NCBI GenBank assembly: GCA_032718475.1
Contig: JAUCBJ010003987.1
Location: 1-64,000 of the forward strand
Direction of reading: 5' to 3'
Source: Nemertoderma westbladi
Lineage: Eukaryota; Animalia; Xenacoelomorpha
DNA length: 64,000 bases
Part shown: piece after piece, positions 5,975 through 53,024 of the stretch
Layout of the letters: the number at the start of each line of letters is the position of its first letter
Numbering within the stretch: the first letter of the stretch is position 1
Translations under genes and position numbers: made by a program
Notes under the pieces: model-generated
Seen by the model: the letters and a program-made list of their open reading frames with translations, nothing else
Told to the model about the DNA's origin: nothing
The model's database searches: none

Positions 5975-6299
5975 CTTCTGTAGTCAATCCAATATAATAA
6001 ATAAAGTTAAAATCAAAATCAAAGTCAGTGTGTGGTATCCTTGTACACACTGTAGTGTAGTGATGTATTGCTGTATGCGCGCGATGTACAGTAAAGATAC
6101 AGTCAGTCGTGATTCAATGAACTCCTATTCTTAATCACACTTTTTCAGAATTGAACAACACTCTTGAACTGCTGTTATCAGTTTAATGTAAATATTTACC
6201 GAAGTAATATTACCTGCAAGTGTAGATAGGCCCTGCCTATAGTATAGACCAAGGCGTCTTTTATTTAATACGCATTGGTATATGCATACATTGTTAAAT

Positions 6300-6520: not shown

Positions 6521-7424
6521 AGATAAAGATAAATTCCTAGATGTTAGAACGGGGTTGAATTCAATAATTAAAATCGTAGTGGTCTTTTCTTATGTCAATT
6601 ATGCAAGGTATGTGGTGCAGTACTAATATTATTTTATTTATTTGTATGTAATTAATTCCGGACTACTTACGGGGTAACTTGCCAGTTACCCCTAAAGACG
6701 TTTTCAGATTTAAAATCCTCATTGAATTCTGCCCCAGATACGTTAAATAAATTTATGAAATCCCCCCCCCCCCCCCCCCTTACAATACATCAAGGGCCAA
6801 CAATTGGCCAATTTGTTTGGTAGTAACTTTGAAATTTATCTACCAATGGTCCCCGGCTGCCCTTTCTTTAATTTTTCATGAAAAACCGCAAATAATAACC
6901 TGCAAAATAGTTATTTATAAAATTATTTAATTGTTTATTAATAAATTTTAATTATTAATAATTGAAATTATACGTCAGGGGACACACCGCAAAGTATATT
7001 CAATCTTGTTTCCATATCATTAGTGGAATATTTACCGAAATTCCGATATTCTTCTGCCCACCTGTATTATAATTTTCACTCGTTGCTCTTATTAGCAAGG
7101 GCTTCGCTTTTGCCAAAAGCATTGTAAATAGTTAAAAAATTATACTGTTGAACACTTCCTCTTTTTTTTATTGAATTATATTTATTTCATTTTCAATAAT
7201 TAACAGAATAAAGAAAATTACATTTAATTAAAAAAAAATTGAATACAAAATAATGTAAGTCCTACTACGAATTGTACTTATATAGTTTTATATTTATTTC
7301 CAGTTTTTAACTTATACTTTCAGTTTAAAATCTTGGGTAATTTAGTTCTAGTTACTTTTTTAAACAATTGCTGTTTCACGTCAGAAAAAATGCCAGAAAC
7401 AATTTTAGTTCTATTTTGTATTCA

Positions 7425-10400
7425 GTTCGCAGCACTAGTCCCTCGGTTGGAGTCCCGTATCTAGCTAGTTTCTGTTCGCAGCACTAGTCCCTCGGTTGGA
7501 GTCCCGTATCTACCTAGTTTCTGTTCGCAGCACTAGTCCCTCGGTTGGAGTCCGTATCTACCTAGTTTCTGTTCGCAGCACTAGTCCCTTGGTTGGAGTC
7601 CCGTATCTAGCTAGTTTATGTTCGCAGCACTAGTCCCTCGGTTGGAGTCCAGTATTTAGCTAGTTTCTGTTCGCAGCACTAGTCCCTCGGTTGGAGTCCA
7701 GTATTTAGCTAGTTTCTGTTCGCAGCACTAGTCCCTTGGTTGGAGCCCGTATCTACCTAGTTTCTGTTCGCAGCACTAGTCCCTTGGTTGGAGTCCCGTA
7801 TCTAGCTAGTTAATGTTCGCAGCAGTAGTCCCTCGGTTGGAGTCCAGTATTTAGCTAGTTTCTGTTCGCAGCACTAGTCCCTCGGTTGGAGTCCGTATCT
7901 ACCTAGTTTCTGTTCGCAGCACTAGTCCCTTGGTTGGAGCCCGTATCTACCTAGTTTCTGTTCGCAGCACTAGTCCCTTGGTTGGAGCCCGTATCTACCT
8001 AGTTTCTGTTCGCAGCACTAGTCCCTTGGTTGGAGTCCTGTATCTAGCTAGTTTATGTTCGCAGCACTAGTCCCTCGGTTGGAGTCCAGTATATAGCTAG
8101 TTTCTGTTCGCAGCACTAGTCCCTCGGTTGGAGTCCAGTATTTAGCTAGTTTCTGTTCGCAGCACTAGTCCCTTGGTTGGAGCCCGTATCTACCTAGTTT
8201 CTGTTCGCAGCACTAGTCCCTTGGTTGGAGTCCCGTATCTAGCTAGTTTATGTTCGCAGCACTAGTCCCTCGGTTGGAGTCCAGTATTTAGCTAGTTTCT
8301 GTTCGCAGCACTAGTCCCTTGGTTGGAGCCCGTATCTACCTAGTTTCTGTTCGCAGCACTAGTCCCTTGGTTGGAGTCCCGTATCTAGCTAGTTTATGTT
8401 CGCAGCACTAGTCCCTCGGTTGTAGTCCAGTATTTAGCTAGTTTCTGTTCGCAACACTAGTCCCTCGGTTGGCGTCCAGTATTTAGCTAGTTTCTGTTCG
8501 CAGCACTAGTCCCTCGGTTGGAGTCCCGTATCTAGCTAGTTTCTGTTCGCAGCACTAGTCCCTCGGTTGGAGTCCAGTATTTAGCTAGTTTCTGTTCGCA
8601 ACACTAGTCCCTCGGTTGGAGTCCCGTATCTAGCTAATTTCTGTTCGCAGCACTAGTCCCTCGGTTGGAGTCCCGTATCTACCTAGTTTCTGTTCGCAGC
8701 ACTAGTCCCTCGGTTGGCGTCCAGTATTTAGCTAGTTTCTGTTCGCAGCACTAGTCCCTCGGTTGGAGTCCCGTATCTAGCTAGTTTCTGTTCGCAGCAC
8801 TAGTCCCTCGGTTGGCGTCCAGTATTTAGCTAGTTTCTGTTCGCAGCACTAGTCCCTCGGTTGGAGTCCCGTATCTAGCTAGTTTCTGTTCGCAGCACTA
8901 GTCCCTCGGTTGGAGTCCAGTATTTAGCTAGTTTCTGTTCGCAACACTAGTCCCTCGGTTGGAGTCCCGTATCTAGCTAATTTCTGTTCGCAGCACTAGT
9001 CCCTCGGTTGGAGTCCGTATCTACCTAGTTTCTGTTCGCAGCACTAGTCCCTTGGTTGGAGCCCGTATCTACCTAGTTTCTGTTCGCAGCACTAGTCCCT
9101 TGGTTGGAGTCCCGTATCTAGCTAGTTTATGTTCGCAGCACTAGTCCCTCGTTTGGAGTCCAGTATTTAGCTAGTTTCTGTTCGCAGCACTAGTCCCTCG
9201 GTTGGAGTCCAGTATTTAGCTAGTTTCTGTTCGCAGCACTAGTCCCTTGGTTGGAGCCCGTATCTACCTAGTTTCTGTTCGCAGCACTAGTCCCTTGGTT
9301 GGAGTCCCGTATCTAGCTAGTTTATGTTCGCAGCACTAGTCCCTCGGTTGGAGTCCAGTATTTAGCTAGTTTCTGTTCGCAGCACTAGTCCCTCGGTTGG
9401 AGTCCGTATCTACCTAGTTTCTGTTCGCAGCACTAGTCCCTTGGTTGGAGCCCGTATCTACCTAGTTTCTGTTCGCAGCACTAGTCCCTTGGTTGGAGCC
9501 CGTATCTACCTAGTTTATGTTCGCAGCACTAGTCCCTCGGTTGGAGTCCAGTATTTAGCTAGTTTCTGTTCGCAGCACTAGTCCCTCGGTTGGAGTCCAG
9601 TATTTAGCTAGTTTCTGTTCGCAGCACTAGTCCCTTGGTTGGAGCCCGTATCTACCTAGTTTCTGTTCGCAGCACTACTCCCTTGGTTGGAGTCCCGTAT
9701 CTAGCTAGTTTATGTTCGCAGCACTAGTCCCTCGGTTGGAGTCCAGTATTTAGCTAGTTTCTGTTCGCAGCACTAGTCCCTTGGATGGAGCCCGTATCTA
9801 CCTAGTTTCTGTTCGCAGCACTAGTCCCTTGGTTGGAGTCCCGTATCTAGCTAGTTTATGTTCGCAGCACTAGTCCCTCGGTTGGAGTCCAGTATTTAGC
9901 TAGTTTCTGTTCGCAGCACTAGTCCCTCGGTTGGCGTCCAGTATTTAGCTAGTTTCTGTTCGCAGCACTAGTCCCTCGGTTGGAGTCCCGTATCTAGCTA
10001 GTTTCTGTTCGCAGCACTAGTCCCTTGGTTGGAGTCCAGTATTCAGCTAGTTTCTGTTCGCAGCACTAGTCCCTTGGTTGGAGCCCGTATCTACCTAGTT
10101 TCTGTTCGCAGCACTAGTCCCTTGGTTGGAGTCCCGTATCTAGCTAGTTTATGTTCGCAGCACTAGTCCCTCGGTTGGAGTCCAGTATTTAGCTAGTTTC
10201 TGTTCGCAGCACTAGTCCCTCGGTTGGCGTCCAGTATTTAGCTAGTTTCTGTTCGCAGCACTAGTCCCTCGGTTGGAGTCCCGTATCTAGCTAGTTTCTG
10301 TTCGCAGCACTAGTCCCTTGGTTGGAGTCCAGTATTTAGCTAGTTTCTGTTCGCAACACTAGTCCCTCGGTTGGAGTCCAGTATTTAGCTAGTTTCTGTT

Positions 10401-13400
10401 CGCAGCACTAGTCCCGCGGTTGGTGTTCCGTATCTAGCTAGTTTATGTTCGCAGCACTAGTCCCTCGGTTGGAGTTCCGTATCTAGCTAGTTTATGTTCG
10501 CAGCACTAGTCCCTTGGTTGGAGTCCCGTATCTAGCTAGTTTATGTTCGCAGCACTAGTCCCTCGGTTGGAGTCCAGTATTTAGCTAGTTTCTGTTCGCA
10601 GCACTAGTCCCTCGGTTGGAGTCCCGTATCTAGCTAGTTTCTGTTCGCAGCACTAGTCCCTCGGTTGGAGTCCAGTATTTAGCTAGTTTCTGTTCGCAGC
10701 ACTAGTCCCTCGGTTGGAGTTCCGTATCTAGCTAGTTTCTGTTCGCAGCACTAGTCCCTTGGTTGGAGTCCCGTATCTAGCTAGTTTCTGTTCGCAGCAC
10801 TAGTCCCTTGGTTGGAGTCCCGTATCTAGCTAGTTTATGTTCGCAGCACTAGTCCCTCGGTTGGAGTCCAGTATTTAGCTAGTTTCTGTTCGCAGCACTA
10901 GTCCCTCGGTTGGAGTCCCGTATCTAGCTAGTTTCTGTTCGCAGCACTAGTCCCTTGGTTGGAGTCCCGTATCTAGCTAGTTAATGTTCGCAGCAGTAGT
11001 CCCTCGGTTGGAGTCCAGTATTTAGCTAGTTTCTGTTCGCAGCACTAGTCCCTCGGTTGGAGTCCGTATCTACCTAGTTTCTGTTCGCAGCACTAGTCCC
11101 TTGGTTGGTGCCCGTATCTACCTAGTTTCTGTTCGCAGCACTAGTCCCTTGGTTGGAGCCCGTATCTACCTAGTTTCTGTTCGCAGCACTAGTCCCTTGG
11201 TTGGAGTCCTGTATCTAGCTAGTTTATGTTCGCAGCACTAGTCCCTCGGTTGGAGTCCAGTATATAGCTAGTTTCTGTTCGCAGCACTAGTCCCTTGGTT
11301 GGAGCCCGTATCTACCTAGTTTCTGTTCGCAGCACTAGTCCCTTGGTTGGAGCCCGTATCTACCTAGTTTCTGTTCGCAGCACTAGTCCCTTGGTTGGAG
11401 TCCTGTATCTAGCTAGTTTATGTTCGCAGCACTAGTCCCTCGGTTGGAGTCCAGTATATAGCTAGTTTCTGTTCGCAGCACTAGTCCCTCGGTTGGAGTC
11501 CAGTATTTAGCTAGTTTCTGTTCGCAGCACTAGTCCCTTGGTTGGAGCCCGTATCTACCTAGTTTCTGTTCGCAGCACTAGTCCCTTGGTTGGAGTCCCG
11601 TATCTAGCTAGTTTATGTTCGCAGCACTAGTCCCTCGGTTGGAGTCCAGTATTTAGCTAGTTTCTGTTCGCAGCACTAGTCCCTTGGTTGGAGCCCGTAT
11701 CTACCTAGTTTCTGTTCGCAGCACTAGTCCCTTGGTTGGAGTCCCGTATCTAGCTAGTTTATGTTCGCAGCACTAGTCCCTCGGTTGTAGTCCAGTATTT
11801 AGCTAGTTTCTGTTCGCAGCACTAGTCCCTCGGTTGGCGTCCAGTATTTAGCTAGTTTCTGTTCGCAGCACTAGTCCCTCGGTTGGAGTCCCGTATCTAG
11901 CCCTCGGTTGGAGTCCAGTATTTAGCTAGTTTCTGTTCGCAGCACTAGTCCCTTGGTTGGAGCCCGTATCTACCTAGTTTCTGTTCGCAGCACTAGTCCC
12001 TTGGTTGGAGTCCCGTATCTAGCTAGTTTATGTTCGCAGCACTAGTCCCTCGGTTGGAGTCCAGTATTTAGCTAGTTTCTGTTCGCAGCACTAGTCCCTC
12101 GGTTGGAGTCCGTATCTACCTAGTTTCTGTTCGCAGCACTAGTCCCTTGGTTGGAGCCCGTATCTACCTAGTTTCTGTTCGCAGCACTAGTCCCTTGGTT
12201 GGAGCCCGTATCTACCTAGTTTATGTTCGCAGCACTAGTCCCTCGGTTGGAGTCCAGTATTTAGCTAGTTTCTGTTCGCAGCACTAGTCCCTCGGTTGGA
12301 GTCCAGTATTTAGCTAGTTTCTGTTCGCAGCACTAGTCCCTTGGTTGGAGCCCGTATCTACCTAGTTTCTGTTCGCAGCACTACTCCCTTGGTTGGAGTC
12401 CCGTATCTAGCTAGTTTATGTTCGCAGCACTAGTCCCTCGGTTGGAGTCCAGTATTTAGCTAGTTTCTGTTCGCAGCACTAGTCCCTTGGATGGAGCCCG
12501 TATCTACCTAGTTTCTGTTCGCAGCTCTAGTCCCTTGGTTGGAGTCCCGTATCTAGCTAGTTTATGTTCGCAGCACTAGTCCCTCGGTTGGAGTCCAGTA
12601 TTTAGCTAGTTTCTGTTCGCAGCACTAGTCCCTCGGTTGGCGTCCAGTATTTAGCTAGTTTCTGTTCGCAGCACTAGTCCCTCGGTTGGAGTCCCGTATC
12701 TAGCTAGTTTCTGTTCGCAGCACTAGTCCCTTGGTTGTAGTCCAGTATTTAGCTAGTTTCTGTTCGCAGCACTAGTCCCTTGGTTGGAGCCCGTATCTAC
12801 CTAGTTTCTGTTCGCAGCACTAGTCCCTTGGTTGGAGTCCCGTATCTAGCTAGTTTATGTTCGCAGCACTAGTCCCTCGGTTGGAGTCCAGTATTTAGCT
12901 AGTTTCTGTTCGCAGCACTAGTCCCTCGGTTGGCGTCCAGTATTTAGCTAGTTTCTGTTCGCAGCACTAGTCCCTCGGTTGGAGTCCCGTATCTAGCTAG
13001 TTTCTGTTCGCAGCACTAGTCCCTTGGTTGGAGTCCAGTATTTAGCTAGTTTCTGTTCGCAACACTAGTCCCTCGGTTGGAGTCCAGTATTTAGCTAGTT
13101 TCTGTTCGCAGCACTAGTCCCGCGGTTGGTGTTCCGTATCTAGCTAGTTTATGTTCGCAGCACTAGTCCCTCGGTTGGAGTTCCGTATCTAGCTAGTTTA
13201 TGTTCGCAGCACTAGTCCCTTGGTTGGAGTCCCGTATCTAGCTAGTTTATGTTCGCAGCACTAGTCCCTCGGTTGGAGTCCAGTATTTAGCTAGTTTCTG
13301 TTCGCAGCACTAGTCCCTCGGTTGGAGTCCCGTATCTAGCTAGTTTCTGTTCGCAGCACTAGTCCCTCGGTTGGAGTCCAGTATTTAGCTAGTTTCTGTT

Positions 13401-14180
13401 CGCAGCACTAGTCCCTCGGTTGGAGTTCCGTATCTAGCTAGTTTCTGTTCGCAGCACTAGTCCCTTGGTTGGAGTCCCGTATCTAGCTAGTTTCTGTTCG
13501 CAGCACTAGTCCCTTGGTTGGAGTCCCGTATCTAGCTAGTTTATGTTCGCAGCACTAGTCCCTCGATTGGAGTCCAGTATTTAGCTAGTTTCTGTTCGCA
13601 GCACTAGTCCCTCGGTTGGAGTCCCGTATCTAGCTAGTTTCTGTTCGCAGCACTAGTCCCTCGGTTGGAGTCCCGTATCTAGCTAGTTTTTGTTCGCAGC
13701 AGTAGTCCCTCGGTTGGAGTCCCGTATCTAGCTAGTTTCTGTTCGCAGCACTAGTCCCTCGGTTGGAGTCCAGTATTTAGCTAGTTTCTGTTCGCAGCAC
13801 TAGTCCCTCGGTTGGAGTCCAGTATTTAGCTAGTTTCTGTTTGCAGCACTAGTCCCTTGGTTGGAGTCCCGTATCTAGCTAGTTTCTGTTCGCAGCACTA
13901 GTCCCTCGGTTGGAGTCCAGTATTTAGCTAGTTTCTGTTCGCAGCACTAGTCCCTCGGTTGGAGACCAGTATTTAGCTAGTTTGTGTTCGCAGCACTAGT
14001 CCCTCGGTTGGAGTCCCGTATCTAGCTAGTTTCTGTTCGCAGCACTAGTCCCTCGGTTGGAGTCCAGTATTTAGCTAGTTTCTGTTCGCAGCACTAGTCC
14101 CTCGGTTGGAGTCCAGTATTTAGCTAGTTTCTGTTGGCAGCACTAGTCCCTCGGTTGGAGTCCCGATATCTAGCTAGTTT
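7425..14180. repeat. Satellite array, 48-49-bp unit (GTTCGCAGCACTAGTCCCTCGGTTGGAGTCCCGTATCTAGCTAGTTTCT), ~138 copies
   Basis: Period 49 (unit starts at 7425 and 7474); a few recurrent variants; no unique spacers. Confidence 0.97.
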
Positions 14181-14289
14181 CCGTGGTGAGGATAAGTTGC
14201 TTTATTATTACAACTTTATTTCAGTTGATGCAGTACTAGTAATGTAGTGTGTTAGCTAGGCCGTTTGCGCTTCCATCACAGCTGTATCA

Positions 14290-20472: not shown

Positions 20473-20592
20473 GGATTCTAATGGTGGTGAAAGTTGATAT
20501 TAGCACCAGTCCAACAAAATAATATTAATTACTATGCCTATTAATAATTCATAAATAAGAATTACTCTGGATAAAATCTGAGTTTGGGAACC

Positions 20593-21366
20593 ATGTTACT
20601 ATTCTTATATTTATATTTAATACTCTCAGTACTTTACTTACATCCTATATTTGGTATAGGAACCACCACAGCATACAGAAGAGTAGCTGGTACCGACCAC
20701 ATTCTAGAAGGAAGTAACCTTGGCAACGAAAGCTTTAAAGACAGCGTCGCTCAGTGCGCAATAACTTGTTCGTCCACCCATGGATGCTTATCGTTTAACT
20801 ACAAGCAGGTTGAGAAGCTCTGTCAGCTAAAAGATATCGAGGCTGGTGATGTTGATACAACCGGTCTGGTTCAACATGTAAAAGGGGGGTACTTCTCCCG
20901 GTCTCCGACGTGTAAAGTTGGCTGGAAATACAGACAGGGGAGCTGCTATTGGCTGGATACAGCGCCGACAACTTGGGCCAATGCCAAGGCCGAATGTGAA
21001 GAGAAGAGAGCCAAACTGCTGTACTTGAACCCGGAGGAGAACTTCAAAGCGGAAATGCGATGGTTAAAAGAGATGGTTGAACCGTATGGAGTATCTGCAT
21101 ACTTTGTAGGAGCCACTGACAGCGATCATGAAGGTGTGTGGAAATGGAGCAATGGGTTGCAACTAACAGTGGAGCAAATGTTTGCAAGGTTTGGACAACT
21201 GACGTTCTCGAATCATAATGGTTTAACTGGTGGTAATCGTGGCCTGGACAACTATGGAAATGAACAACACGTTCTGCAATTTTATCCGTCATTTTTAACA
21301 TTTAACGATACCAACGATTTAAAGCATCGTCCCTTTATTTGCAAATACTCAGCGGAACTAAAATAA
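20593..21366 (+). CDS. Secreted PAN/Apple-domain + C-type lectin-like domain protein, intronless
   Basis: ATG at 20593, then a hydrophobic signal peptide. PAN-like CAITCSSTHGCLSFNY...CQL. CTLD CKVGW..GSCYW...TWANAKAEC...VGATD..HEGVWKW...FICK. Confidence 0.88.
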   Translation: MLLFLYLYLILSVLYLHPIFGIGTTTAYRRVAGTDHILEGSNLGNESFKDSVAQCAITCSSTHGCLSFNYKQVEKLCQLKDIEAGDVDTTGLVQHVKGGYFSRSPTCKVGWKYRQGSCYWLDTAPTTWANAKAECEEKRAKLLYLNPEENFKAEMRWLKEMVEPYGVSAYFVGATDSDHEGVWKWSNGLQLTVEQMFARFGQLTFSNHNGLTGGNRGLDNYGNEQHVLQFYPSFLTFNDTNDLKHRPFICKYSAELK

Positions 21367-22035: not shown

Positions 22036-23691
22036 GACTGCTTGCATTACATGTTTAAGAGAGATTATAACATTATTTATGTAGATGCATACGATTGTCC
22101 ACAAGCTGTTCTCATGGCGAAAACAACCAAAGTCAAGAATATGGACTCAAAACGGTTTGTGAGATGGATCATATCCATCTGGTTCATATGCATATGGATC
22201 ATATTCATATGGATCATAATCTATATGGATCATATCAATAAGATTATCGATAATATTGCTAAAATTATGTTCTATAAGATATCGATAATATTTTTAATAT
22301 TATGTTCTGAGTCATTGTTTTTAACTATAAAACGCTTCTTAAAATACTTACTAGATGTTCAGCAATTTCCACTGCGGGCAGTTTAGCACACAGAGAATGA
22401 TGAGTCCGCTGCAGTTTGGGTCAACTTATTGAACTGAACTGAACTGGTTGAACTGAAAAATTTAGTTTGTATTTTTGTAAGCGGATCCATTCCGCTCTAC
22501 ATTTCCAACCTAAATTGGAAGGGAGCCGAATAAACAATATTGGACCCAGAGAAATACCGAATCAGTAAGTGGGCACCAACAAGCCCACTTACAGCTACAG
22601 GAAATCATACCAGGCAAATTAATACCCCACTAAGTGGAACCTTATGGCAGACAGATGAGTGGTGTGACTGGACTTGTGGGGGGGGGGGGGGGGGGGGTAA
22701 TAACATTACTTACATTAATATAATAACGCTAATAATACTACCGTATGTGATAATTCCAATATTAATGAACGTGTTAGTACGCAAATTAATATTTTAATAA
22801 ATAACAACCAAAATATTACTGGTACTGGCACAATAAATAATGTATATAATAACAATTTGATGAATAACAACATAGAAAATAATGCACAAAATAATTCATA
22901 ATACAGTGAATAATGAAGCAAAAAATAATACGCCTAGTGGCGGGAATGAAGGTGGGGATGCAGGTGGGCCATACTAGTGGCAATATAAGTAATGTGTCGA
23001 CCGGAAGAGTGTGTGGAGAAGGGGTTAACCGAGACGCTCATAGAAGTGACGGGTGGGGGGGGGGGGGGGGGGCAATAAATACCCCACAGGCATCGGCTGG
23101 GGGGCGTGCACAGTGAAACAAAACTCGGAGTGCCAATGCCGGAAGAGAATAGAAGATTAGCGAATATCTATGAAGCCGTACTACCGGGTAGGGGATGAGG
23201 TGGTCACGCCATAATCGGCCAAATTAAGGAACGTCAAACCCATTCAGGAGAGTTCATCCGGGAGATCGAAACTAGATCTCATGAATGTGGATATGATGCC
23301 AGAAGTGGACGACGCGGGGAAAGTGGGAGGATTACTCGAGGTAATGTTGCTGTTGCTACGAGCAACTGGAGGAGTCGAGATAGGACGGACAGTGAACCGT
23401 CAATAATCGAGGTGGAGGAGACAAACCGGTGGGACCTAACTTCGGGAGATTGCTGTCGCCCCGAAGAGACGCGGTCTGTGGATTTATATTACGCAATGGG
23501 AGGAGGGTATAGGATGTACCGAGAGAATGAATGAAACGAGATGATTTGAGGGGATCGTAGAGAAACTTCCCATTAACAAATTAACCCATGAAAACCATTA
23601 CTCCTCTCTCAAACCTTCACAAACCAAAATTAATAAAATTATCCGATGCATCCCATTTTCTCACTACCGATCGCAATCATCGTCAAACACT

Positions 23692-24390
23692 AGTAGTAAG
23701 AGTATGCCATCCTCGGCGACAGTTAGACCAACTTCACACCTTAGGTGTTAAGTAGGTCATTAATTAATTAAACAATTAATTAATTTGTCGATTAATCAAT
23801 TAATTAATTGTTTAATCGATCGATTTGTATCAAATAATGTTGCCAAAGGCAATTTAATTTGACAAAAATCAATCAGATAGGGACGTGCGATGAATAGATT
23901 GTACTACAGTAGATAAAATATACAATACAATAGGAACAATAATACAATATACAGTGCATTTGTATTATTTTTGCCGTACAATAGAATGATAGAATGAAAT
24001 ATAAAGAAGCGAGCGGGGCCCAAAACATAAATTAGCGTCACACGATAATAAAATGGGCCAGTTTGATCCTAGCTCAGTCCCTCAATAATCTGTGGCTGTT
24101 TGGGCTCTTATTAGACGTAGCATGACTAACCCCATTGAATCCTATGTTGAGTTATACTGTATACCAACCTGGGGCTGCCACAAAGTTTAAATTATTTAAA
24201 CCTCCAGCTTCGTTATCATGTAGACCATTGTCAAATCGCCCGAGAAATTAGAATAAACATCTGGTTTTGCAATAGATTGCATTCTTTCACATTGTATTGT
24301 GAAGCAGCCTGCGCGCCTAATCGCACGCTCCAAGTATTAGCTCAGTGACAAAGCCAATACCCAAAAACCATATGTCAAATTAACCCTCAA
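23692..24390 (+). repeat. Left terminal inverted repeat of the Polinton-like element
   Basis: Reverse complement of 28312-29013 with scattered substitutions. Confidence 0.95.
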
Positions 24391-24606
24391 GAAAAATCCA
24401 AGAAACATCTGGTTTGCAATAGATTATTCTTTTTCACAACTCCATTCTAGCTTCCCTCTATAATAGCCCCCATTCACTGCATTCCCATTCATTCTCTAAT
24501 TTTCATTTTTAAAAGTTTTATTTATTTTAATAAAAGTTTTATTTATTTAAAATTTTGTAAAATCATTTAACGAAAATTGAATACTATCAATTGAAATTGC
24601 TATATA

Positions 24607-25325
24607 ATGCCTAGTTATGAAAAATGCATGGTTTGTGATAAAGAAATGAGACGAGACAGTATATCCCGCCATATGAGTATACATAGAAAGCAAGGTGTAA
24701 TGGAACCTTCCCCAAAGAAATTAAAAAATAATGATGATATTTTTAGTGAAGAAGAGAACAAAAAGAGAGTTGAGAGTGATTTTCTAGAGATTAAACAAAT
24801 GATGAAACATAAATTCGAGAAAATCATGAATATTTTGAAAAATATACAGAAACAGCCACATAGTGAAAAGGATGATGAGATGAAGATGATAAATCAGAGG
24901 AAAGTGAAAAGGTTGAGAATGATGAAACGGAGAGTGAGATAGAGAAAGAAGAAAATGAGAGTGGTGATGAAGAAAATGAGAGCGAGAAAGAAGTCGAGGA
25001 ACATGAAAGTGGGGAGGAGAATGACTCAGATAATGAGGAGATATTAAGACATGTATTAGGAAATAAAAATAAATTGCAGAAAATAATTAGACAATTGAAT
25101 GAAATGCAGAAACATTCGCATAAGGAGAGTGATAATGATGGAAATGAGAGTGGTGAGGATGAATCGGAGGAGAGTAGCGATGACAGTGAGGAAGAATCAG
25201 AGGAGAGTAGCGATGACAGTGAGGAAGCATCAGAGGAGAAAGATAATGAAAATGGACAGAAAATCAGAGTAGGGAATGGAAAAGTTATATCTCCAGCACT
25301 GTTGTATATCGACCTAGGAGTATGA
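24607..25325 (+). pseudogene. C2H2-like zinc finger + highly acidic protein, one frameshift near 24879
   Basis: CMVC-x11-HMSIH and PSPKKLK (NLS-like). Shifting frame at GATGAG/ATGAAG gives an open D/E/S-rich frame that continues into ORF 25074-25325. AATAAA at ~25445. Confidence 0.7.
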
Positions 25326-25569
25326 ACAGTCGTACAGTTAATGCGAGACATTAATTATAACTGAAATATTGTATATGTTTGAAATATTTATTATATTTAG
25401 TCGTATTAATTATGTAATTTCATAATAATATGCTTAATTAAACAAATAAAGTCAACTTGATCCTATTTTAAATGCATAATGAATGAGTAACCAAAACATC
25501 AAATTAGTTAAACATTTTGACAACAGATAAACAAATATTCTCCTGTGGGGAGAAGTGGTGTGCTGGAGA

Positions 25570-26462
25570 AGTGGCTGAAGGTGAGGCTGTGGCTGAAGGT
25601 GAGGCTGTGGCTGAGGGTGAGGCTGTGGCTGTGGCTGAAGGTGAGGCTGTGGCTGAGGGTGAGGCTGTGGCTGTGGCTGTGGCTGTGGCTGTGGCTGTGG
25701 CTGTGGCTGTGGCTGAAGGTGAGGCTGTGGCTGAGGGTGAGGCTGTGGCTGTGGCTGTGGCTGTGGCTGAGGCTGTGGCTGTGGCTGTGGCTGTGGCTGT
25801 GGCTGTGGCTGTGGCTGAAGGTGAGGCTGTGGCTGAGGGTGAGGCTGTGGCTGTGGCTGTGGCTGTGGTTGTGGCTGTGGCTGTGGTTGTGACTGTGGCT
25901 GTGGCTGTGGCTGAGGCTGAGGCTGTGGCTGTGGCTGTGGCTGTGGCTGTGGCTGAAGGTGAGGCTGAGGGTGAGGCTGTGGCTGTGGCGTTGTGGCTGT
26001 GGCTGTGGCTGTGGCTGTGGCTGTGGCTGTGGCTGTGGCTGTGCTGTGGCTGTGGCTGTGGCTGTGGCTGTGGCTGTGGCTGTGGCTGTGGCTGTGGCTG
26101 TGGCTGTGGCTGTGGCTGTGGCTGTGGCTGTGGCTGTGGCTGTGGCTGTGGCTGTGGCTGTGGCTGTGGCTGTGGCTGTGGCTGAAGGTGAGGCTGTGGC
26201 TGAGGGTGAGGCTGTGGCTGTGGCTGTGGCTGTGGCTGTGGCTGTGGCTGTGGCTGTGGCTGTGGCTGTGGCTGTGGCTGTGGCTGTGGCTGTGGCTGTG
26301 GCTGTGGCTGTGGCTGAAGGTGAGGCTGTGGCTGAGGCTGTGGCTGTGGCTGTGGCTGTGGCTGTGGCTGTGGCTGTGGCTGTGGCTGTGGCTGTGGCTG
26401 TGGCTGTGGCTGTGGCTGTGGCTGTGGCTGTGGCTGTGGCTGTGGTTGTGGCTGAGGCTGTG
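25570..26462. repeat. (GCTGTG)n hexamer microsatellite with interspersed GAAGGTGAG/GAGGGTGAG units
   Basis: Directly visible, ~900 bp, in the middle of the Polinton-like element. Confidence 0.97.
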
Positions 26463-27344
26463 TCTCAGTGCCTCACTCCCCCACTCGTTTAACAGTACAG
26501 GCTAAAGCCATTCTTTAGATGCTGGAGGGGAATCTGGTTTGCATTGGATAACTTGATTAGTGAGTATATCTACATTTGGGAGATAGTGCGCTGTCTTATG
26601 AGTAAAAGCCAAGAGAGTAGTCCTTGGGTTCGCTCTTCTTAACTTTACAATATAACTTAACCCTTATTTAAAGTTTTAAAAAATATTTCTTAGTCGAGTA
26701 ATTTTCTGAAATATATTATAGAAATTTCATGAATAAATAGACCTAACAGTAATAATTGTTGTGAATAAATAGTCCTAATACTAATATTAAAGGAAGTCAA
26801 ACAAACAAATAAATTTCATCAGCATCGTCCTACGCATGCAAATACTGTATGAGAGTTCCACATAATAGGATCTCGACAATTAATAACCAACTTTTCTGAC
26901 TTTGTGGTGGCTCTCCTTTCATAGACACAGAAGTGTTAGTTGCTTTGGTAAGTAATCATTCTCATTAGTTAGTGATTGTAGTTTGGAAAGTGCTTCCCGC
27001 GCGCAATCTGTATCATCAATAGAAAACGCATAAACATATCGTCGATCGGAAATTTCTAATATGTCACAGTTATAGGCAGTATAAATCTTTATTCGTTCTG
27101 AAATTATTTCTTCATAGTCATCAACGCTGGCGCCAAGGCAGATGGTGGTGGCTTCCTTTACCTGATTGTCTAGTGCTTCCTAACCTGTATAATTCAACAA
27201 AGTTTAAAGTTTTTACTGTGTGTGTCTTTTTCATAGCCTATGTTAAATCAAATTACATTCATGTAACTATTGTAACATTTATATTATAAAATGGATATGG
27301 TGAGGGATTGAACTTATTGTTACTTGATTTATTTACCTTGTCAA

Positions 27345-27659
27345 TTAATCCCATGCTTCTTCTCTCCATTCTTTTTCTATGCCCCACGCTTCTTTCGGCC
27401 ATTCAACGCTAGGGTTTTCGGTTTTGATTTGTTCTTCTTCTTTTCTTTTTTCGTGAATGGACTTCCCATTTCGATACTGACAGTATCTTAAATGGTATTG
27501 TTTTTCTGCCTCGGGAAAGTAATGGCATTGGATGTTCGGGCATTGAACTATTTTTTCACCTGGATAATTTCTTCTACATTTTCTTAAATGTTTGATAAAT
27601 CTTTCTACATGGATTCTGTGGGTTGTTTCATATGGGCATATTATATACTCATTATCCAT
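27345..27659 (-). CDS. GTSF1: Miniature GTSF1/Asterix (gametocyte-specific factor 1)-like protein, 104 aa, carried by the Polinton-like element
   Basis: Two tandem U11-48K-type CHHC fingers with exact C-x5-H-x9-H-x3-C spacing (C8/H14/H24/C28 and C40/H46/H56/C60). CPY..H.I..RF..HL.KCR.N.P matches GTSF1 finger 1. Acidic Trp-rich tail ends EEAWD. AATAAA lies ~12 nt after the stop (27328-27333, minus strand). The symbol denotes family homology, not orthology. Confidence 0.88.
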   Translation of the reverse strand: MDNEYIICPYETTHRIHVERFIKHLRKCRRNYPGEKIVQCPNIQCHYFPEAEKQYHLRYCQYRNGKSIHEKRKEEEQIKTENPSVEWPKEAWGIEKEWREEAWD

Positions 27660-28311
27660 TATAAAAAGTATATGATAAACTATATTGTATTTTATATTGT
27701 ATATTATAAAATTGTTAATTTAATTACTAATAATAATTATTACCTTAGTGAATATTGAATGAATATAGTGAATATTGAATGAATATAGAGAAGTGGTTTA
27801 TTATATTATATTAAAGTAATACTCAATCTAAGGCTTATTTATCGACAAATAAATTTATTATAATATATTAACATTTGATGTATTTTATTTTTTAGATTTA
27901 CCAAAATCACGCACTATAATAGAATAATAACTAACTAACTTATCCATCACCATCACAACAGAATAATAACAATAAAAGTTCGAAAGTACACCCTGCATCC
28001 TATGTGTAGCCTTGTATGGGCATATACAGTAATATAATCACTGTTATCCATAGTATCAAAAAGACAAACTTAACTTGAAAGAAAACTTAACTTGATAGAA
28101 AACTTAGTTTAAGTGAGGATTTAATTTAAAAAACTTTGAAAACTTCACTTTAACGTTTTTTAGAGATAATGATTTAACTTTACATGATTTTTATTTATAT
28201 AGAAAGGTCCACCTTAACATTTCAAACAAGGCCGTAGTTTTCGGCATGGCATGCGTGAAGGATTATGCATTACTTCAAACAATAAAACTATAGTATCTAG
28301 TATAGAGATGG

Positions 28312-29013
28312 TTGAGGATTAATTTGACATATGGTTTTTGGGTACTGGCTTTGTCACTGAGCTAATACTTGGAGTGTGCGATTAGGCGCGCAGGCTGCTT
28401 CACAGCACAATGTGAAAGAATGCAATCTATTGCAAAACCAGATGTTTATTGTAATTTCTCGGGCGATTTGACAATGGTCTACATGATAACGAAGCTGGAG
28501 GTTTAAATAATTTAAACTTTCGTGGCAACCCCATGTTGGTATACAGTATAACTCAACATAGGATTCAATGGGATTAGTCATGCTACATCTAATAAGAGCC
28601 CAAACAGCCACAGATTATTGAGGGGCTGAGCCAGGACCAAACTGGCCCATTTCATTTTCGTGTGAGGCTAATTTATGTTTTGGGCCCCGCTCGCTTCTTT
28701 ATATTTCATTCTATCATTCTACTGTACGACAAAAATAATACAAATGTACTGTATATTGTATTATCTGTTCCTATTGTATTGTATATTTTATCTACTGTAG
28801 TACAATCTATTCATCGCGCGTCCCTATCTGATTGATTTGTGTCAAATTAAATTGCCTTTGGCAACATTATTTGATACAAATCGATCGATTAAACAATTAA
28901 TTAATTGTTTAATCGACCAATTAATTAATTGTTTAATTAATTAATGACCTACTTAACACCCAAGGTGCAAAGTGGGTCCAACTGTCGCCGAAGAGGGCGT
29001 TCATCTTACTACT
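28312..29013 (-). repeat. Right terminal inverted repeat of the Polinton-like element
   Basis: Mirror of 23692-24390. Confidence 0.95.
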
Positions 29014-29419
29014 AACACTATCTATAAATCTTCATCCATATTACCTCTTCAGCTACTATACAATCACCAAACCGCTTCACTTGTGTATGATCTTAAGATT
29101 TTCAAAAAATATCTCACAGCTACTCCACTCGCTTGGCTACCACCTCTGGGTTCATAGTGGCTTCATAGTCACCATCTGGAACTCGATCCCTGCTGATATC
29201 AAGTAACTAAATCGTCCACCTTGGTGGTATTTAAAAAAAAAAACAAACAATTTAATTAATTATTAATTAATTAGGTTCCACTAGCTCTGCTATATTACCT
29301 GGGTCTTTGCCGTTAACTAACTAATACTCACCATTTCATTTCATAACGCTAAGTGCAATTAATATTTGGTTGTAAGTGAAGGAAATCAATAAAGTTACAA
29401 AGTTAGAAAGTTAAAACAT

Positions 29420-30413
29420 GAATGAGAGACTGAATCATAGGCCCTGAAGAAGTCAACAAAGAAAACAGCCACATGCCTGTCTTTCTTTTTTGATAATTCT
29501 AATTATTCTTCTAAGTGCCAAAATGGGCTCCATGGTCCCACGACCTTTACGGAACCCATTCTGATTTCCACGGAGCAGTCTCTCAATGGGATCCCTGATG
29601 CGATTTAATAGAATTCTATTGTATAGCTTTGCAGCAATCGAGATAAATGAGATTCCCCGAAAAGAATCATAGGGTGTTAGGTTGCCCTTCTTGGAAACTG
29701 GCACCAACTTATTAGTTTTCATTTCTTTTGGGACTCTTGTTGTTCGGTACATGTCTTCTATGATGGGATAATTGGAGCTCCAAACTCTCAGTTATTTTAA
29801 AAACCTCTTGGTGGTTAGTTGGCTTTTCAGCTGGGATGAATGAGCTCCAAACACTCTGGTATTTTAAAGACCTCAGGGGGATCATCTAATCCACTGTCAC
29901 GATTGGTCTTAATGCTCTTTGCAGCAGCCTTCACTTCAGCAAAGGAGATATCACCAATAATGGGAATATCTGGAAGTACAGATACAGACAATTTAATTAT
30001 ATAAAGTTATCAGGCAATACCCTGTCATTATTGAGGAGCTTTTCAAAGTGGGCCTTCCAACCATTGTGGCGATTGGTGGTGATTCAGCCTTAACCTTGGT
30101 GGTTGGTTAGTTTTTCCGCTCACTCAGCAAGTTGATCGATTTCCATGCCTGGGATGATTGCCTGATGTCATCAGCATCATCGATGGCATCAACCTGTTGG
30201 TGTAAAGGCTCCTGTAGATTAACAGATTAATGCCTGTTCAGGGACCTAGAAGCAACATTCTCCAATACGCAGAGGAGCCTTTGGGCCTCCTCTCTTGTGA
30301 TTCTGACAGTACCCCTAAGTCATCAGCAAAGTCTAGATCAGTAAGGTAATTTACTGGATTTCCTCTACTTCTTGTGCAAGTAGGGGGTGTTACCATCACC
30401 CTATCATCATTAA
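29420..30413 (-). mobile_element. Degenerate RTE-type retrotransposon fragments
   Basis: KKGNLT..SFRGIS..AAKLYNRILLNRI..NQNGFRKGR at 29453-29752. YLTDLDFADDL at ~30310-30350 continues the RT broken at 33725. Confidence 0.85.
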
Positions 30414-34934: not shown

Positions 34935-36203
34935 TTAAATGCTGATTTTCATTTCAATTCTTTCTGCAGGATCTACAGCAGTGAACTCCAGCCACCATGG
35001 CCCATGCTGCCCGCCAGCACCATATATCCCATTCAAATTTGCATGCGAACAACTCTTGTACCACCAAGCGCCTCTGAAATGCACAGCACAGTTATCAAAA
35101 CCATATTCATCATTGTCCCGATCCTTTGTGGTAAAGGACTGACCATCTAACCAATCAGGGTGAGAGGGGCCACTTATTAACATAGCATTCCCTGCAGTCC
35201 CTTGGTATCCTGCAATTCTTAAAGTATAAGTTGTGCTTTCCGAACCAACTCGGAATAAAGAATATTCCGCGAATCCATATTTCCCCCTATACCAGATATC
35301 CACTCTCAGTTTAACCCCTCCAGCAGTAAGATTGTGTATGGTATCCAACCCTAACCAAAATTCGTTGCTAACATCACCGAATCCAGACTTATAATACGCC
35401 CACTCCCGATAAAAGTCCATGGCTCCATTAATTCTCCTCTGAATCACCAACCATGGACCACCTGGGACCATGGTGTCACATCTGATTAAACCATTTAGGC
35501 CATAATCACTACTGTAGATTCTAATTGTATTATTCAGTTGATAATTGTGACAAAGATTATTTGGAGGAACTCCTAGTGCCATAATTATTGCTTCCTTTTG
35601 TTCATCAATCTTACCAATGAATTCATTTGATTGTTCATTAACTTTCCCATCAAATATGTCACTTAGTTCATTAAGTGTATTTCTCAAGGTTTCAGTATTC
35701 GTACTAATGTTATAAGTAAATTCATTTATATTTACCTTCACCACATCATGGAATATTTTTGAATGATGAATTAGATTACTATATACTATATCATTGTGGT
35801 CTTCGACGTTTGCGTTAAAGTTGCTAGTTAGATAATCTAGTTGCTCACCTATTGTCTCTTCTTTATCCTTTAGACTGTCAGCAAATTTATCCAACTTCAT
35901 TATGATTTCTATTTGGTTATTTATCATGAAAAAAGAAATCCTTGCCAAGGCAGCCATCACAACTAGTAGTCCAATAAGTGTTATAATTATAATTATCCAC
36001 TTGCATTTTGTTGGATTTCTCTGAGCAATTTTCTCACCCTCAGTTTTGAGTGTTCCTTCACTGATTATCGGATCCGGCACATCATATACGGAATATACGC
36101 CTTCTTCAATAACTGATGGCTTTTGTTTACCCATCAATGTTAACTCATAAACAGGATTAGTCAACTTAACTGCATCATCATTTATTTTTAGAGAAGTTGC
36201 CAT
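34935..36203 (-). CDS. Type-II transmembrane FReD receptor, copy 2 (422 aa), intronless
   Basis: Cytoplasmic N-terminus, single TM (WIIIIITLIGLLVVMAALA), helical stalk, FReD (WLVIQRR, GFGD...EFWLGL, FTTKDRDND, GAWWY..C..ANLNG, EMKI). Confidence 0.93.
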   Translation of the reverse strand: MATSLKINDDAVKLTNPVYELTLMGKQKPSVIEEGVYSVYDVPDPIISEGTLKTEGEKIAQRNPTKCKWIIIIITLIGLLVVMAALARISFFMINNQIEIIMKLDKFADSLKDKEETIGEQLDYLTSNFNANVEDHNDIVYSNLIHHSKIFHDVVKVNINEFTYNISTNTETLRNTLNELSDIFDGKVNEQSNEFIGKIDEQKEAIIMALGVPPNNLCHNYQLNNTIRIYSSDYGLNGLIRCDTMVPGGPWLVIQRRINGAMDFYREWAYYKSGFGDVSNEFWLGLDTIHNLTAGGVKLRVDIWYRGKYGFAEYSLFRVGSESTTYTLRIAGYQGTAGNAMLISGPSHPDWLDGQSFTTKDRDNDEYGFDNCAVHFRGAWWYKSCSHANLNGIYGAGGQHGPWWLEFTAVDPAERIEMKISI

Positions 36204-38156: not shown

Positions 38157-40599
38157 CCCGCCTATACCCGGTTTTGTTTTGCCACATAGACACCCGCTTT
38201 GGGTCAATTTGACCCATACCTACAAAAAACGACTTTGTAGGGGAAATAATCAATTTCCACACTGCCAATATAATTATAGGGTTAAAATATAGTACAAGTG
38301 ATTGTACAGAGTTATATATCGATTACCAATATCATGTTATCGATTGTTATCAATATCATGTTATCAATAGTATGTTCGGACTCTAGGTGCAACTAGTGCA
38401 ATACGTTGATACACGTGAATGTACGTCGCAGATGAAGTGTGCACAGTTGTCGCATTTTCGTGAATACTTTGTAGACCCAGACTTTTGTGGGCACCTGTAG
38501 CATCTCCCACGTTTGGGAACTTTGGGTGCTGAAACACTGGAGCCCACCAAGGATGTACTGAGCTGCTGCTCTCGCTGGGCTATAGTACGAGGTGCCTCAG
38601 CAATATGACGGGATAGGGTACGAGACGTCATACTGATCTTCATAAGACCCTGAGATACCTCTGTTAGGTAATTGAACCTCGCCCGATTAGTGCGACGGGT
38701 TGTTGGGAAGAGAGTGTAATACACCACAAACCCGGCAACTGCAGCGACATCAACTACCACCATGAAGACCCGCATGGGCCAGCGGCGGGTGGCCCTGCGT
38801 GCTGTGAAATGACCCACCATCGCATCCATCACATCAACACCACATTTTTGCGCATTATAATCCAAAATCATGCTGGGTTTGTGGGTCGCCTCGGCTGAAA
38901 CTTCCTGATCAAAGTGGGACGATGATAACATCAGCACACACTTGCTTGCCTTTGGTATATACGAAACCAATGTTGCGTCATTGGTGTGGCCGAACAAACT
39001 GGAATGGACTTGTCTTCCCCGTGTGTCAACGAACTCTTGGGGAACCTCCGGCTTGTTACGCCTGACAGTTCCTAGGTAGCTGAGCCGATGCTGCTTCAGT
39101 TCCAATAAAAGTTCCATACTACTAAAGAAGTTGTCTGCGCAAATGTTTCTATTAGTTCCAAATAAAGGCTGCGCCAAGTCCAGGACCACACGCTTAGACT
39201 GTCCCTTTTCTCGTGCTTCATTCGGAAGCCGGCCGCAATAAACTTGGCCATTGTATGGATAGAATGTCTCAGAGTCATATAGCCACCAGAACTTGATGCC
39301 GTACTTCGCTGGCTTTGATGGGATGTATTGCCGGAATGGACACCTACCACGGAATGGTGACAGCATCTCGTCCACAGTCACAGTCGGACCTGGTACATAG
39401 GACGATCGGAGACGGTTTACAAACATGTCCCACACTTCCCGGATTGGGGCCAGTTTGTCAGTAGCTCGCCGTTCTACACGAGTCTCTTTGTTGTCAAAGC
39501 GAAAGTGGCGCAAAATTTCAACGAAACGATTTCGGGACATAGTGGCACTGTAAATGGGCCGGCCATATTCATTGTGGAAGAGTGAACGTACTGGAAGTCG
39601 ATTGTCTCGATGAACTCCTGCAAAGATAAGGATGCCGAGGAAACCATACAGCTCGTCGAGTGTAACGTCAGGGTCAATCGCACTGTTGTTCGTTGCGTCC
39701 AAAACGATCATCAACATTTCATGTGAAATGAAATTGGTAAATGTGTCCAGTGGGGAAGACATATTCTTATCTCTCACATGTTTGGGAATGGACCGACCCT
39801 CACGAATGATATTGATGGATCGAACTTGAGAAGTTGGAAGACATGGCGTCTTGCTCCACTCAATGTTGCCCCTACGTGATACATATAATGTTGCCCCTTC
39901 ACCTTCTCCATTGCTCTCCCCGACTCCTCCGGCATCACTCATCCCGCACTCCTCCACACCATCTCCGGCAGACACATTGCTTCCAGAGTCTTCCACCTCA
40001 CTCTCACCACCATCCAGTTCATCATTGTCATCTATTGCATCACTATCAACTCCATCGCTGTCATCCAGGAACTCATCTTGGGACGGAAAAAGGTACCCAT
40101 AGGCATTCACAGGACGTCTTGTCCGATTAGGATAACGATTCGACATACTAAATGATACCTCCGAAATTTGAGATCTCTGAGAGTGTTTATGTTTATCCAG
40201 TTACCTTTCAGCCTTTCAACTATATGATTAATATCAACATACAATCTCTACCGGTACAGCAGTACACTAAGATTCACTGGAGAAAATTCAAAATTCCCAC
40301 GTTTTTCAAGTTACCAATGGTACATTTCCTACTATGTATAAGCGCTTGTATAAGATAAGGAACAGCATTTACACTATTGGGTCAATTTGACCCACTTTGG
40401 TAAACCACGTGTACAAGGTGTTTAGATGTCTACTGCTAGAACACCATTTCGGTATATGTTATTATATTATAGCTTATGGTTACTAACTAGTAGGGGTAGG
40501 ATGTCACAAGATATTATGACCATCACGCCAGCCTGTACTTCACAGCTGGATTTTTAACAACGAGTTGGGCCAATTTGACCCACATCTGGTAACCGCGGG
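38157..40599 (-). mobile_element. Full-length piggyBac transposon (2443 bp)
   Basis: TTAA at 38153-38156 and 40600-40603. Termini CCCGC.../...GCGGG. Subterminal palindromes GGGTCAATTTGACCC at 38201 and 40379, with a variant at 40567. Confidence 0.93.
38383..40146 (-). CDS. piggyBac transposase, 587 aa, intact
   Basis: Acidic N-terminus; DDD triad motifs TVDEML, ADNFF, GVDVMD; PSKPAKYGIK; RRWP; C-terminal cysteine-rich domain. Confidence 0.95.
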   Translation of the reverse strand: MSNRYPNRTRRPVNAYGYLFPSQDEFLDDSDGVDSDAIDDNDELDGGESEVEDSGSNVSAGDGVEECGMSDAGGVGESNGEGEGATLYVSRRGNIEWSKTPCLPTSQVRSINIIREGRSIPKHVRDKNMSSPLDTFTNFISHEMLMIVLDATNNSAIDPDVTLDELYGFLGILIFAGVHRDNRLPVRSLFHNEYGRPIYSATMSRNRFVEILRHFRFDNKETRVERRATDKLAPIREVWDMFVNRLRSSYVPGPTVTVDEMLSPFRGRCPFRQYIPSKPAKYGIKFWWLYDSETFYPYNGQVYCGRLPNEAREKGQSKRVVLDLAQPLFGTNRNICADNFFSSMELLLELKQHRLSYLGTVRRNKPEVPQEFVDTRGRQVHSSLFGHTNDATLVSYIPKASKCVLMLSSSHFDQEVSAEATHKPSMILDYNAQKCGVDVMDAMVGHFTARRATRRWPMRVFMVVVDVAAVAGFVVYYTLFPTTRRTNRARFNYLTEVSQGLMKISMTSRTLSRHIAEAPRTIAQREQQLSTSLVGSSVSAPKVPKRGRCYRCPQKSGSTKYSRKCDNCAHFICDVHSRVSTYCTSCT

Positions 40600-51718: not shown

Positions 51719-52954
51719 TTAAATACTAATTTTCATTTCAATTTTTTCAGCAGGACCTACAGCAGTGAACTCCTGCCACCAAGGCCCATGAAAATTGACG
51801 AAGTCGTTATAAATTCCATTCAAATTTGCGTGCGAACATTTCTTATACCACCAAGCGCCACTGAAATGCTTGGCGCAGTTCAAATAGTATTTATCGTTGT
51901 CTTTATCCTTTGTGGTGAAGGGCTGACCATCTAACCAATTATCACCAGTTGGATCACCAGGTAGCAATGCGTCCCCTGCAGTCCCTTGGTATCCTGAGAC
52001 GCCCAAAATATAATTTGTGCTTTCCGAACCAACTTTGAATGAAGAATATTCCGCGAATCTGTATTCCCCCTTATACCAGATATCCACTCTCAGTTTAACC
52101 CCTCCAGCAGTAAGATTGTGTATGGTATCCAACCCTAACCAAAATTCGTTGCTAACATCACCGAATCCAGACTTATAATACGCCCACTCCCGAAAGAAGT
52201 TAACAGCTCCATTAATTCTCCTTTGAATCACCAACCATGGGCCACCTGGGAACGTTGTGTCACATCTGATTAACCCATTTAGACCTTGTTGACTATTATA
52301 GATGCTAACTGAGTTATTCAGTTGATAATTTTGGCAAAGATGATTTGAAAGAAGATATCCTAAAGCAACCAGTATTGAATTCTTTTGCTGAAGAATTCTC
52401 TCAGTAATTGTGTTGCTTTGATTATTTAGCTGACCAGAAAACTTATCAACTTTTTCCACAACACTTTTATTTAATTCCTTAAGTTGTTCATTTTGAATAT
52501 CAGAGAATAATTTACTTTGCTCACCAATGGTACCATTGAATATCGCAATTTGTTCTTGAAGTTTATCAGAATGTATTTCCATTTCCCCATTTAACTTTGC
52601 CTTTAGCTCTTTTGTTTTATCATTTAGTTCAGCTAAATAATTCTTTATATCTTTATTTATATCACTTTCCAAACTGATCACTTCTATATCACTTTGATAA
52701 CTACCAGATACCATAGCATTAGCAATGGCGATTTCACCGACCAACACAATTAGTAAACCAGTAAATATAACAGCCATCACCGTCCACAAACACTTGTAAT
52801 TATTTAGCTTATTTCTTGTATATCTAGATGCATATTGATTGTCTTGGATTTTATCTGGAATAACTATGTATAGAGGATTATTATAATCTGAATTATCTTC
52901 TTGAAAGTCAATGACACCGCTCTCAGCTGTTATTGGACTCATATCAGTTTCCAT
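51719..52954 (-). CDS. Type-II transmembrane FReD receptor, copy 3 (411 aa), intronless
   Basis: Same architecture as copies 1 and 2; TM CLWTVMAVIFTGLLIVLVG; complete FReD. Confidence 0.93.
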   Translation of the reverse strand: METDMSPITAESGVIDFQEDNSDYNNPLYIVIPDKIQDNQYASRYTRNKLNNYKCLWTVMAVIFTGLLIVLVGEIAIANAMVSGSYQSDIEVISLESDINKDIKNYLAELNDKTKELKAKLNGEMEIHSDKLQEQIAIFNGTIGEQSKLFSDIQNEQLKELNKSVVEKVDKFSGQLNNQSNTITERILQQKNSILVALGYLLSNHLCQNYQLNNSVSIYNSQQGLNGLIRCDTTFPGGPWLVIQRRINGAVNFFREWAYYKSGFGDVSNEFWLGLDTIHNLTAGGVKLRVDIWYKGEYRFAEYSSFKVGSESTNYILGVSGYQGTAGDALLPGDPTGDNWLDGQPFTTKDKDNDKYYLNCAKHFSGAWWYKKCSHANLNGIYNDFVNFHGPWWQEFTAVGPAEKIEMKISI

Positions 52955-53024
52955 AGTATAATATTGCTAAGCATTCAACAATGTATTTTCATTCATGAAA
53001 CTGCACGTTAAACCCAATATTATT

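Follow-up and report, generated by a model that had tools for sequence, protein, structure and literature searches.

Polintons, also termed Mavericks, are DNA transposons whose ends carry a characteristic signature, i.e. (AGT)2//(ACT)2 or (AG)3//(CT)3 motifs plus a 6-bp target-site duplication (PMC8097293). GTSF1 (Asterix) is a cofactor of PIWI slicing. In mouse GTSF1, residues R26, R29, K36 and K39 are needed for RNA binding and for the potentiation of slicing (PMC9385479), and the RNA-binding and PIWI-binding modules are separable: finger mutants bind Piwi yet fail to rescue silencing (PMC9539491). Capture of genes that serve the pathway of PIWI-interacting RNAs (piRNAs) by transposons, as a counter-defence, is also in print (PMC7785250, PMC13534243). 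The published cases found are gene fragments that are proposed to act as piRNA sources, and it is an open question whether any protein encoded by an animal transposon acts against silencing by piRNAs. The locus described here, in a 64-kb stretch of the Nemertoderma westbladi genome (positions 1–64,000 of contig JAUCBJ010003987.1, termed the window), is an element with Polinton-type ends and an intact mini-GTSF1 gene, without genes for replication, integration or capsid. It carries a complete homologue of a PIWI slicing cofactor, reduced to its RNA-binding finger plus a motif of the PIWI-binding type that is present in duplicate. The reading tentatively preferred here, at somewhat less than an even chance, is that of a non-autonomous Polinton-type family with a captured PIWI cofactor, which is kept as a protein and is likely a competitor of host GTSF1.

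The element spans positions 23692–29013 (5322 bp) and lies between exact copies of AACACT; from the composition of the flanks, an exact 6-mer at that place has a chance of ~3e-4. The sequence AGTAGTAAGA forms both its start and its end, on opposite strands, and these are the only two exact matches in the window. The terminal inverted repeats (699 and 702 bp) are 95% alike, with 35 differences in 702 columns. The AT-rich palindromic block is present: the first 169 nucleotides (nt) of the element are predicted to form five successive hairpins (z = -8.4; none of 200 shuffles was as stable). All of this agrees with the original prediction, made from the sequence alone, of a 5.3-kb Polinton-like element with AGTAGT...ACTACT termini, inverted repeats of ~700 bp, a palindromic block and an exact 6-bp duplication.

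The differences between the two inverted repeats are unevenly placed. The outermost 55 columns (23692–23746/28959–29013) hold 10 of the 35 (p ~3e-4), as if the two ends derived from different subfamilies. Because of this clustering, dating from the Kimura two-parameter distance between the repeats (0.047) is unreliable. No other part of the window matches the element, and an Rfam scan gave no match.

Genes for pPolB, integrase, ATPase, protease and capsid were looked for in a six-frame reading and in Pfam scans of the element and none was found; outside a repeat array the longest open reading frame (ORF) has at most 176 amino acids (aa). The absence of core genes between Polinton-type ends had been predicted, and both the end motif and the 6-bp duplication match the published signature (PMC8097293). 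The absence of any Polinton gene would also suit ends that come from another transposon superfamily, as would the lack of a helper by exact repeat match (23 nt in viral contigs, 22 nt in metagenome contigs). Such an origin is extremely improbable, given that AGTAGT/ACTACT ends, inverted repeats of ~700 bp and a 6-bp duplication, all three present here, are the combination that defines Maverick ends (PMC8097293).

The interior holds four gene-like stretches, one of them intact (Table 1). The two convergent ORFs of the original prediction are indeed convergent, but the count was too low, and they begin 217 bp (left) and ~650 bp (right) inward of the inverted repeats rather than just inside them. 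The statement that only accessory genes were kept is right as to the missing core genes and overlooks the main point, namely that the intact gene is a GTSF1 homologue.

The protein encoded by this gene matches the Pfam family zf-U11-48K above the cut-off. In a PDB sequence search the top two of four matches are GTSF1 (mouse 6x46, E = 5.2e-10; a chain of 9nhb, E = 6.5e-9), where 9nhb/9nhc are structures of the SIWI-piRNA-target-GTSF1-Maelstrom complex; U11-48K itself is a poorer match (E = 0.004). The Atlas search gives 0.95–0.96 to GTSF1-like clusters, and a TRM13-type cluster follows in 27th place at 0.85. The protein is thus nearer to GTSF1 than to U11-48K or TRM13. A structure model from a 41-row alignment has a predicted local distance difference test (pLDDT) value of 81, and replaced a single-sequence fold with a value of 53. 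In the model both fingers are folded and the two best fold matches are the same two GTSF1 entries, with low TM-scores of 0.34–0.38.

A HMMER scan with the protein yields 477 relatives at E<=1e-3, with identities of at most 46% among the best 150 of the 477. A comparison set was formed by the 119 of these 150 that have a strict tandem CHHC pattern (31 were dropped). In a quick tree of the 119 relatives and the element protein (70 columns) the latter has no clear place and no donor can be named; its branch length is 1.82, the median being 0.34. A word-based homologue search, covering proteins of near length and longer ones, gave nothing; there is no relative of the ORF in viral contigs, and a viral fold library gave no match at E<=0.001. 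The sole protein match in metagenome contigs shares only a 9-residue word and lacks the first Cys/His ligands, and it was rejected as a chance match.

The best viral fold matches are weak and are to two proteins of Vesanto virus annotated as “putative glycoprotein” (A0A7D4W439 and A0A7D4W433; E = 3e-3 and 1.5e-2; TM-score ~0.3). Vesanto virus is a bidna-like virus of Drosophila that encodes homologues of PolB and whose termini are inverted repeats (PMC8363768). In an ENA protein of 156 aa (P0002) there are two single CHHC fingers, and behind each of them come a Cys motif and a linker rich in Thr. Over 31 aa at the N-terminus this protein shares 52% identity with the GTSF1-like protein, and it has no relative in viral contigs.

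All eight zinc ligands are present in the element protein (finger 1: C8, H14, H24, C28; finger 2: C40, H46, H56, C60). The linker between the fingers has 11 aa, as in 107 of the 119 relatives. R20, K27 and R30 align with mouse R29, K36 and K39, so that three of the four RNA-binding basic residues are kept; the first position is Arg in 103 of the 119 relatives, the second is Lys in 105, and the third is Lys or Arg in 98. At the position of mouse R26 the element protein has His, and just 27 of 119 relatives have Arg there. The acidic-Trp motif, present in 82 of the 119, lies at an offset of 42, which is the family median.

The tail is altered. It displays a doubled EWxxEAW motif with W87, W92, W98 and W103, and the protein ends at D104, directly after the motif. 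Only one of the 82 relatives with the motif ends in this way, the median being 158 residues beyond it. The tail has four Trp residues, while none of the 119 relatives has more than two there, and the extra ones come from an internal duplication of the EWxxEAW unit (16 of 21 nt alike). The Trp of the family matches W98 in the alignment and W103 by offset; all four, which lie after the fingers, are by sequence putative PIWI-binding aromatic residues. Finger 2 has drifted as well: it reads CPNIQCH, the aromatic-Asn pair after CP is lost, and neither of the residues found instead occurs in any of the 119. Scored against 107 members, finger 2 ranks above only 5 and finger 1 above 25.

These features bear on a second reading, in which the protein is a working activator, i.e. 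a GTSF1 that functions and makes PIWI slicing stronger or tunes it anew, thereby excluding rival elements or viruses or buying tolerance from the host. It is distinctly unlikely. The eight ligands, the three RNA-binding residues, the acidic-Trp motif and the folding of both fingers in the model (pLDDT 81) would all suit it, and GTSF paralogues can be specific to one PIWI protein (PMC9385479). However, few members of the set are as divergent in finger 2 and in the residues following it, and stronger piRNA silencing would presumably cost a transposon unless it were aimed elsewhere.

The retention of ligands and functional residues over a long branch implies selection on the protein, and the setting of this selection may have been the element or a paralogue in the host. 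The start context TATAATG is common to the GTSF1-like gene and ORF1; these are the only two occurrences in the element, and the window has 20. Together with the AATAAA near the stop codon, this appears to fit a compact element gene better than a fresh retrocopy.

A passive passenger is considered unlikely; here a short GTSF1 paralogue of the host, evolving fast, would have been retrocopied into a defective Polinton and co-amplified with it, with no benefit to the element. GTSF paralogues are numerous and their tails diverge fast (PMC9385479), no relative of the gene is found in viral or metagenome contigs, and neutral decay alone leaves a fair share of such frames open, as given below. Against this, a poly(A) remnant and a long untranslated region are absent, an AT-rich leader accompanies the start context in both ORF1 and this gene, the poly(A) signal lies right past the stop, and of the four gene-like stretches only this one has stayed intact. 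A weak further point comes from the sequencing runs: of the joints listed (15 of 137), 7 lie in the interior; the ORF is left uncut by all 7, and one of them doubles it in its entirety.

Contigs of sequencing runs were mapped to positions 26480–30200. The right half of the element is present in four runs (X1–X4), which belong to three studies on a single species. X1 and X3 are of one sample, and X1–X3 come from two studies; there is no RNA run among the 6 runs listed. The summed contig depth over the gene is 338–554 in X1 (lowest flank bin 16.7; bin adjoining the element 96.5), 270–406 in X2 (18.7; 69.3) and 1531–2872 in X3 (125; 342). This is 12–33 times the lowest flank bin and 3.5–8.4 times the adjoining bin; single contigs at the 3′ end of the gene reach 10–13 times the lowest flank bin. 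X4 has one contig on the 5′ two-thirds of the gene, at a depth of 9, and none on the near flank. The depth of the inverted repeat in X1 ranges from ~5,000 to 73,000, far above that of the gene, which suggests that related ends form a large family.

Sequence variants are present as well. X1–X3 hold a form which is ~10% diverged, with 35–37 differences and 9 gaps over 27151–27525, and forms without the 142–145 bp immediately upstream of the ATG. In X2 and X3 a joint from 28047 to 27050 represents a 998-bp tandem duplication with the whole gene inside. The depth excess and the variant contigs show several copies, and the contigs give no link from the interior to insertion sites. The data are read as a copy number anywhere from several to about twenty, and some of these copies may be in tandem. 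Because of the extra depth, the diverged variant and the ~1-kb tandem duplication, the gene appears to be a family trait rather than a one-off. Of the two origins first proposed, a trans-mobilised derivative or an in-situ deletion, contig depth and variants favour a multi-copy derivative over a single deletion in situ.

Tandem duplication is also a feature of an RNA-level counter-defence of the Drosophila TART type, in which piRNAs from the captured sequence would silence host Gtsf1 mRNA and the protein would be irrelevant. There is precedent in the nxf2, piwi and aub fragments, with tandem amplification of the captured piece (PMC7785250, PMC13534243). In the Drosophila cases the fragments must be ~90% identical to the host gene, ~80% being too low (PMC13534243), whereas the protein here is far from all listed relatives (best 150 of 477) and the ORF has been kept complete, including a start and a stop of its own. 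A TART-type action is therefore very unlikely.

For the preferred reading, a non-autonomous family whose captured cofactor competes with host GTSF1, the following course may be proposed. The gene would have been captured from host Gtsf1, probably via RNA because no intron remains, and reshaped into a compact gene in the style of the element. Selection, acting on the protein over a long time, would have kept the eight zinc ligands, the basic ridge of finger 1 and the Trp motif along the long branch. A full Polinton helper would supply polymerase and integrase, acting in trans on the shared hairpin-rich ends. The short protein, in which the aromatic motif is doubled, the distal tail is missing and finger 2 has drifted, could occupy PIWI-piRNA complexes and displace host GTSF1, and the element family would then be silenced less strongly. 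Because the modules of GTSF1 are separable (PMC9539491), a protein that binds and fails to activate is feasible. A more specific form of the proposal, possible but doubtful, is that a Polinton lineage captured GTSF1 and remodelled it to a short protein that binds PIWI with high avidity and thereby blocks the cofactor of the host. Gene-ferrying mini-elements would spread this protein and provide it in trans to their helper.

Several points weigh against competition with host GTSF1. The protein keeps the features that activation is known to require (the finger-1 ridge and the Trp motif) and so could aid PIWI instead of blocking it. The Trp-x4-Trp spacing that it shares with mouse W107/W112 occurs in none of the 119 other relatives, and the match to mouse may be by chance. 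The long branch and the short tail may be traits of the host lineage, the comparison having covered relatives other than the host Gtsf1 gene, and short GTSF1-like clusters (109–145 aa) exist in the Atlas. In a simulation of neutral decay over half the divergence of the repeats the ORF was still open in 31% of 5000 runs, and its intactness is for this reason weak evidence. Summed contig depth does not equate to copy number: the flanks give an uncertain baseline, tandem copies can account for some of the excess, and the best of the runs may derive from the source sample. Finally, the exact repeat matches in viral and metagenome contigs brought up no helper with these ends.

Table 1. Features of the element and its target-site duplications (positions in the window)
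Feature	Position	Strand	Remarks
Left target-site duplication AACACT	23686–23691	+	Exact 6-bp match
Left terminal inverted repeat	23692–24390	+	699 bp; begins AGTAGTAAGA; five hairpins in first ~170 nt
ORF1, frameshifted	24607–25325	+	N-terminal C2H2-type finger, then coiled/acidic low-complexity region; TATAATG start context
Broken stretch around (GGCTGT)n array	25452–26660	-	Premature stop and frameshifts
Broken stretch; pieces of 37 and 86 aa lie in separate frames	26919–27234	-	Matches no family
Intact GTSF1/Asterix-like gene, 104 aa, intronless	27345–27659	-	Two CHHC fingers; TATAATG start; AATAAA ~10 nt past stop
Right terminal inverted repeat	28312–29013	-	702 bp; ends TCTTACTACT
Right target-site duplication AACACT	29014–29019	+	Exact 6-bp match

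The three other gene-like stretches are all broken. The frameshift in ORF1 is seen as two overlapping frames (24607–24942 and 24879–25325). Its finger is a weak Pfam match (E = 0.14), and no homologue was found in viral contigs or by a word-based search of longer proteins; the Atlas leads are weak (0.90 or less), and most of them are small proteins of the C2H2 type from large DNA viruses. The (GGCTGT)n array at 25585–26462 has 146 units, makes up ~880 bp of the interior and is read as Pro-Gln or Ala-Thr repeats; the non-repeat pieces of that stretch have no Pfam match. The 86-aa piece of the third stretch has no relative in viral contigs. A motif, ATCTGGTTT(T)GCA, recurs at 24259, 24407 and 26532 (+) and at 28443 (-), i.e. 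in both repeats, just inward of the left one and once in the interior, and is a possible candidate for a regulatory site.

The flanks (23545–23691 and 29014–29206) resemble what we take to be the decayed C-terminal part of a long interspersed nuclear element (LINE) reverse-transcriptase gene that was split by the insertion; they gave no Pfam match. The window is that of an animal genome rich in LINE fragments. It also displays an open piggyBac-type transposase ORF of 605 aa (38383–40200; Pfam DDE_Tnp_1_7, E = 1e-73), a 6.8-kb satellite with a 49-bp unit, 93% alike (7421–14181), and a 900-bp foldback element with arms of 339 nt that are 96% complementary (1065–1963). The window further holds two fibrinogen-domain genes without introns (34935–36203 and 51719–52966), whose products are predicted to have a membrane anchor, an intronless MFS ORF (4544–5983) and an intronless PAN/C-lectin ORF (20575–21366).

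The element shares with Polintons/Mavericks the (AGT)2//(ACT)2 ends, the long inverted repeats and the 6-bp duplication (PMC8097293), and with Mavericks, including the cargo carriers of nematodes, the intronless compact genes and the host-derived cargo (bioRxiv 10.1101/2022.07.12.499685). The cargo differs: in the nematode elements it is a protease or a kinase (bioRxiv 10.1101/2022.07.12.499685), and here it is a cofactor of small-RNA defence. Autonomous Polintons are 15–25 kb long, whereas this element has 5.3 kb and none of pPolB, integrase, ATPase, protease and capsid. It is not an autonomous Polinton and probably works like a non-autonomous derivative. Non-autonomous Polinton derivatives were reportedly described by Kapitonov and Jurka in 2006.

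With GTSF1/Asterix (6x46; 9nhb/9nhc) the protein has in common the tandem CHHC fingers, the 11-aa linker and the basic ridge of finger 1, as well as an acidic Trp motif ~40 residues past finger 2 and a small size (PMC9385479, PMC9539491). It differs from GTSF1/Asterix in being borne by a mobile element, in ending at the motif, in the doubling of the motif (four Trp), in the divergence of finger 2 and in the His at the R26 position. No published report of a whole GTSF1-like ORF in a transposon or virus was found in a search of literature other than subscription papers, supplements and Repbase-type annotations, and the excerpts of PMC9808576 and PMC11125864 make no mention of an element-borne GTSF1. 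The one paper that names both Polintons and GTSF1 is a review, which does so in passages that have no bearing on each other. A protein of 104 residues fits existing slicing assays, and this makes the question testable. Should the protein prove to be an activator, it would still show that Polinton derivatives ferry genes of genome defence; should it prove to be a blocker, it would be a protein, encoded by a transposon, that inhibits the piRNA pathway of animals.

The nearest parallel to such a role is in Drosophila, where TART-A carries nxf2 sequence (PMC7785250) and aub and piwi fragments have also been captured (PMC13534243). As in the present case, a sequence of the piRNA pathway is borne by a transposon, and tandem amplification is possible. 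The Drosophila telomeric retrotransposons, however, carry gene fragments in a LINE, with a proposed action through antisense piRNAs (PMC7785250, PMC13534243), whereas here a whole ORF, apparently selected as a protein, is carried by a Polinton-type DNA element.

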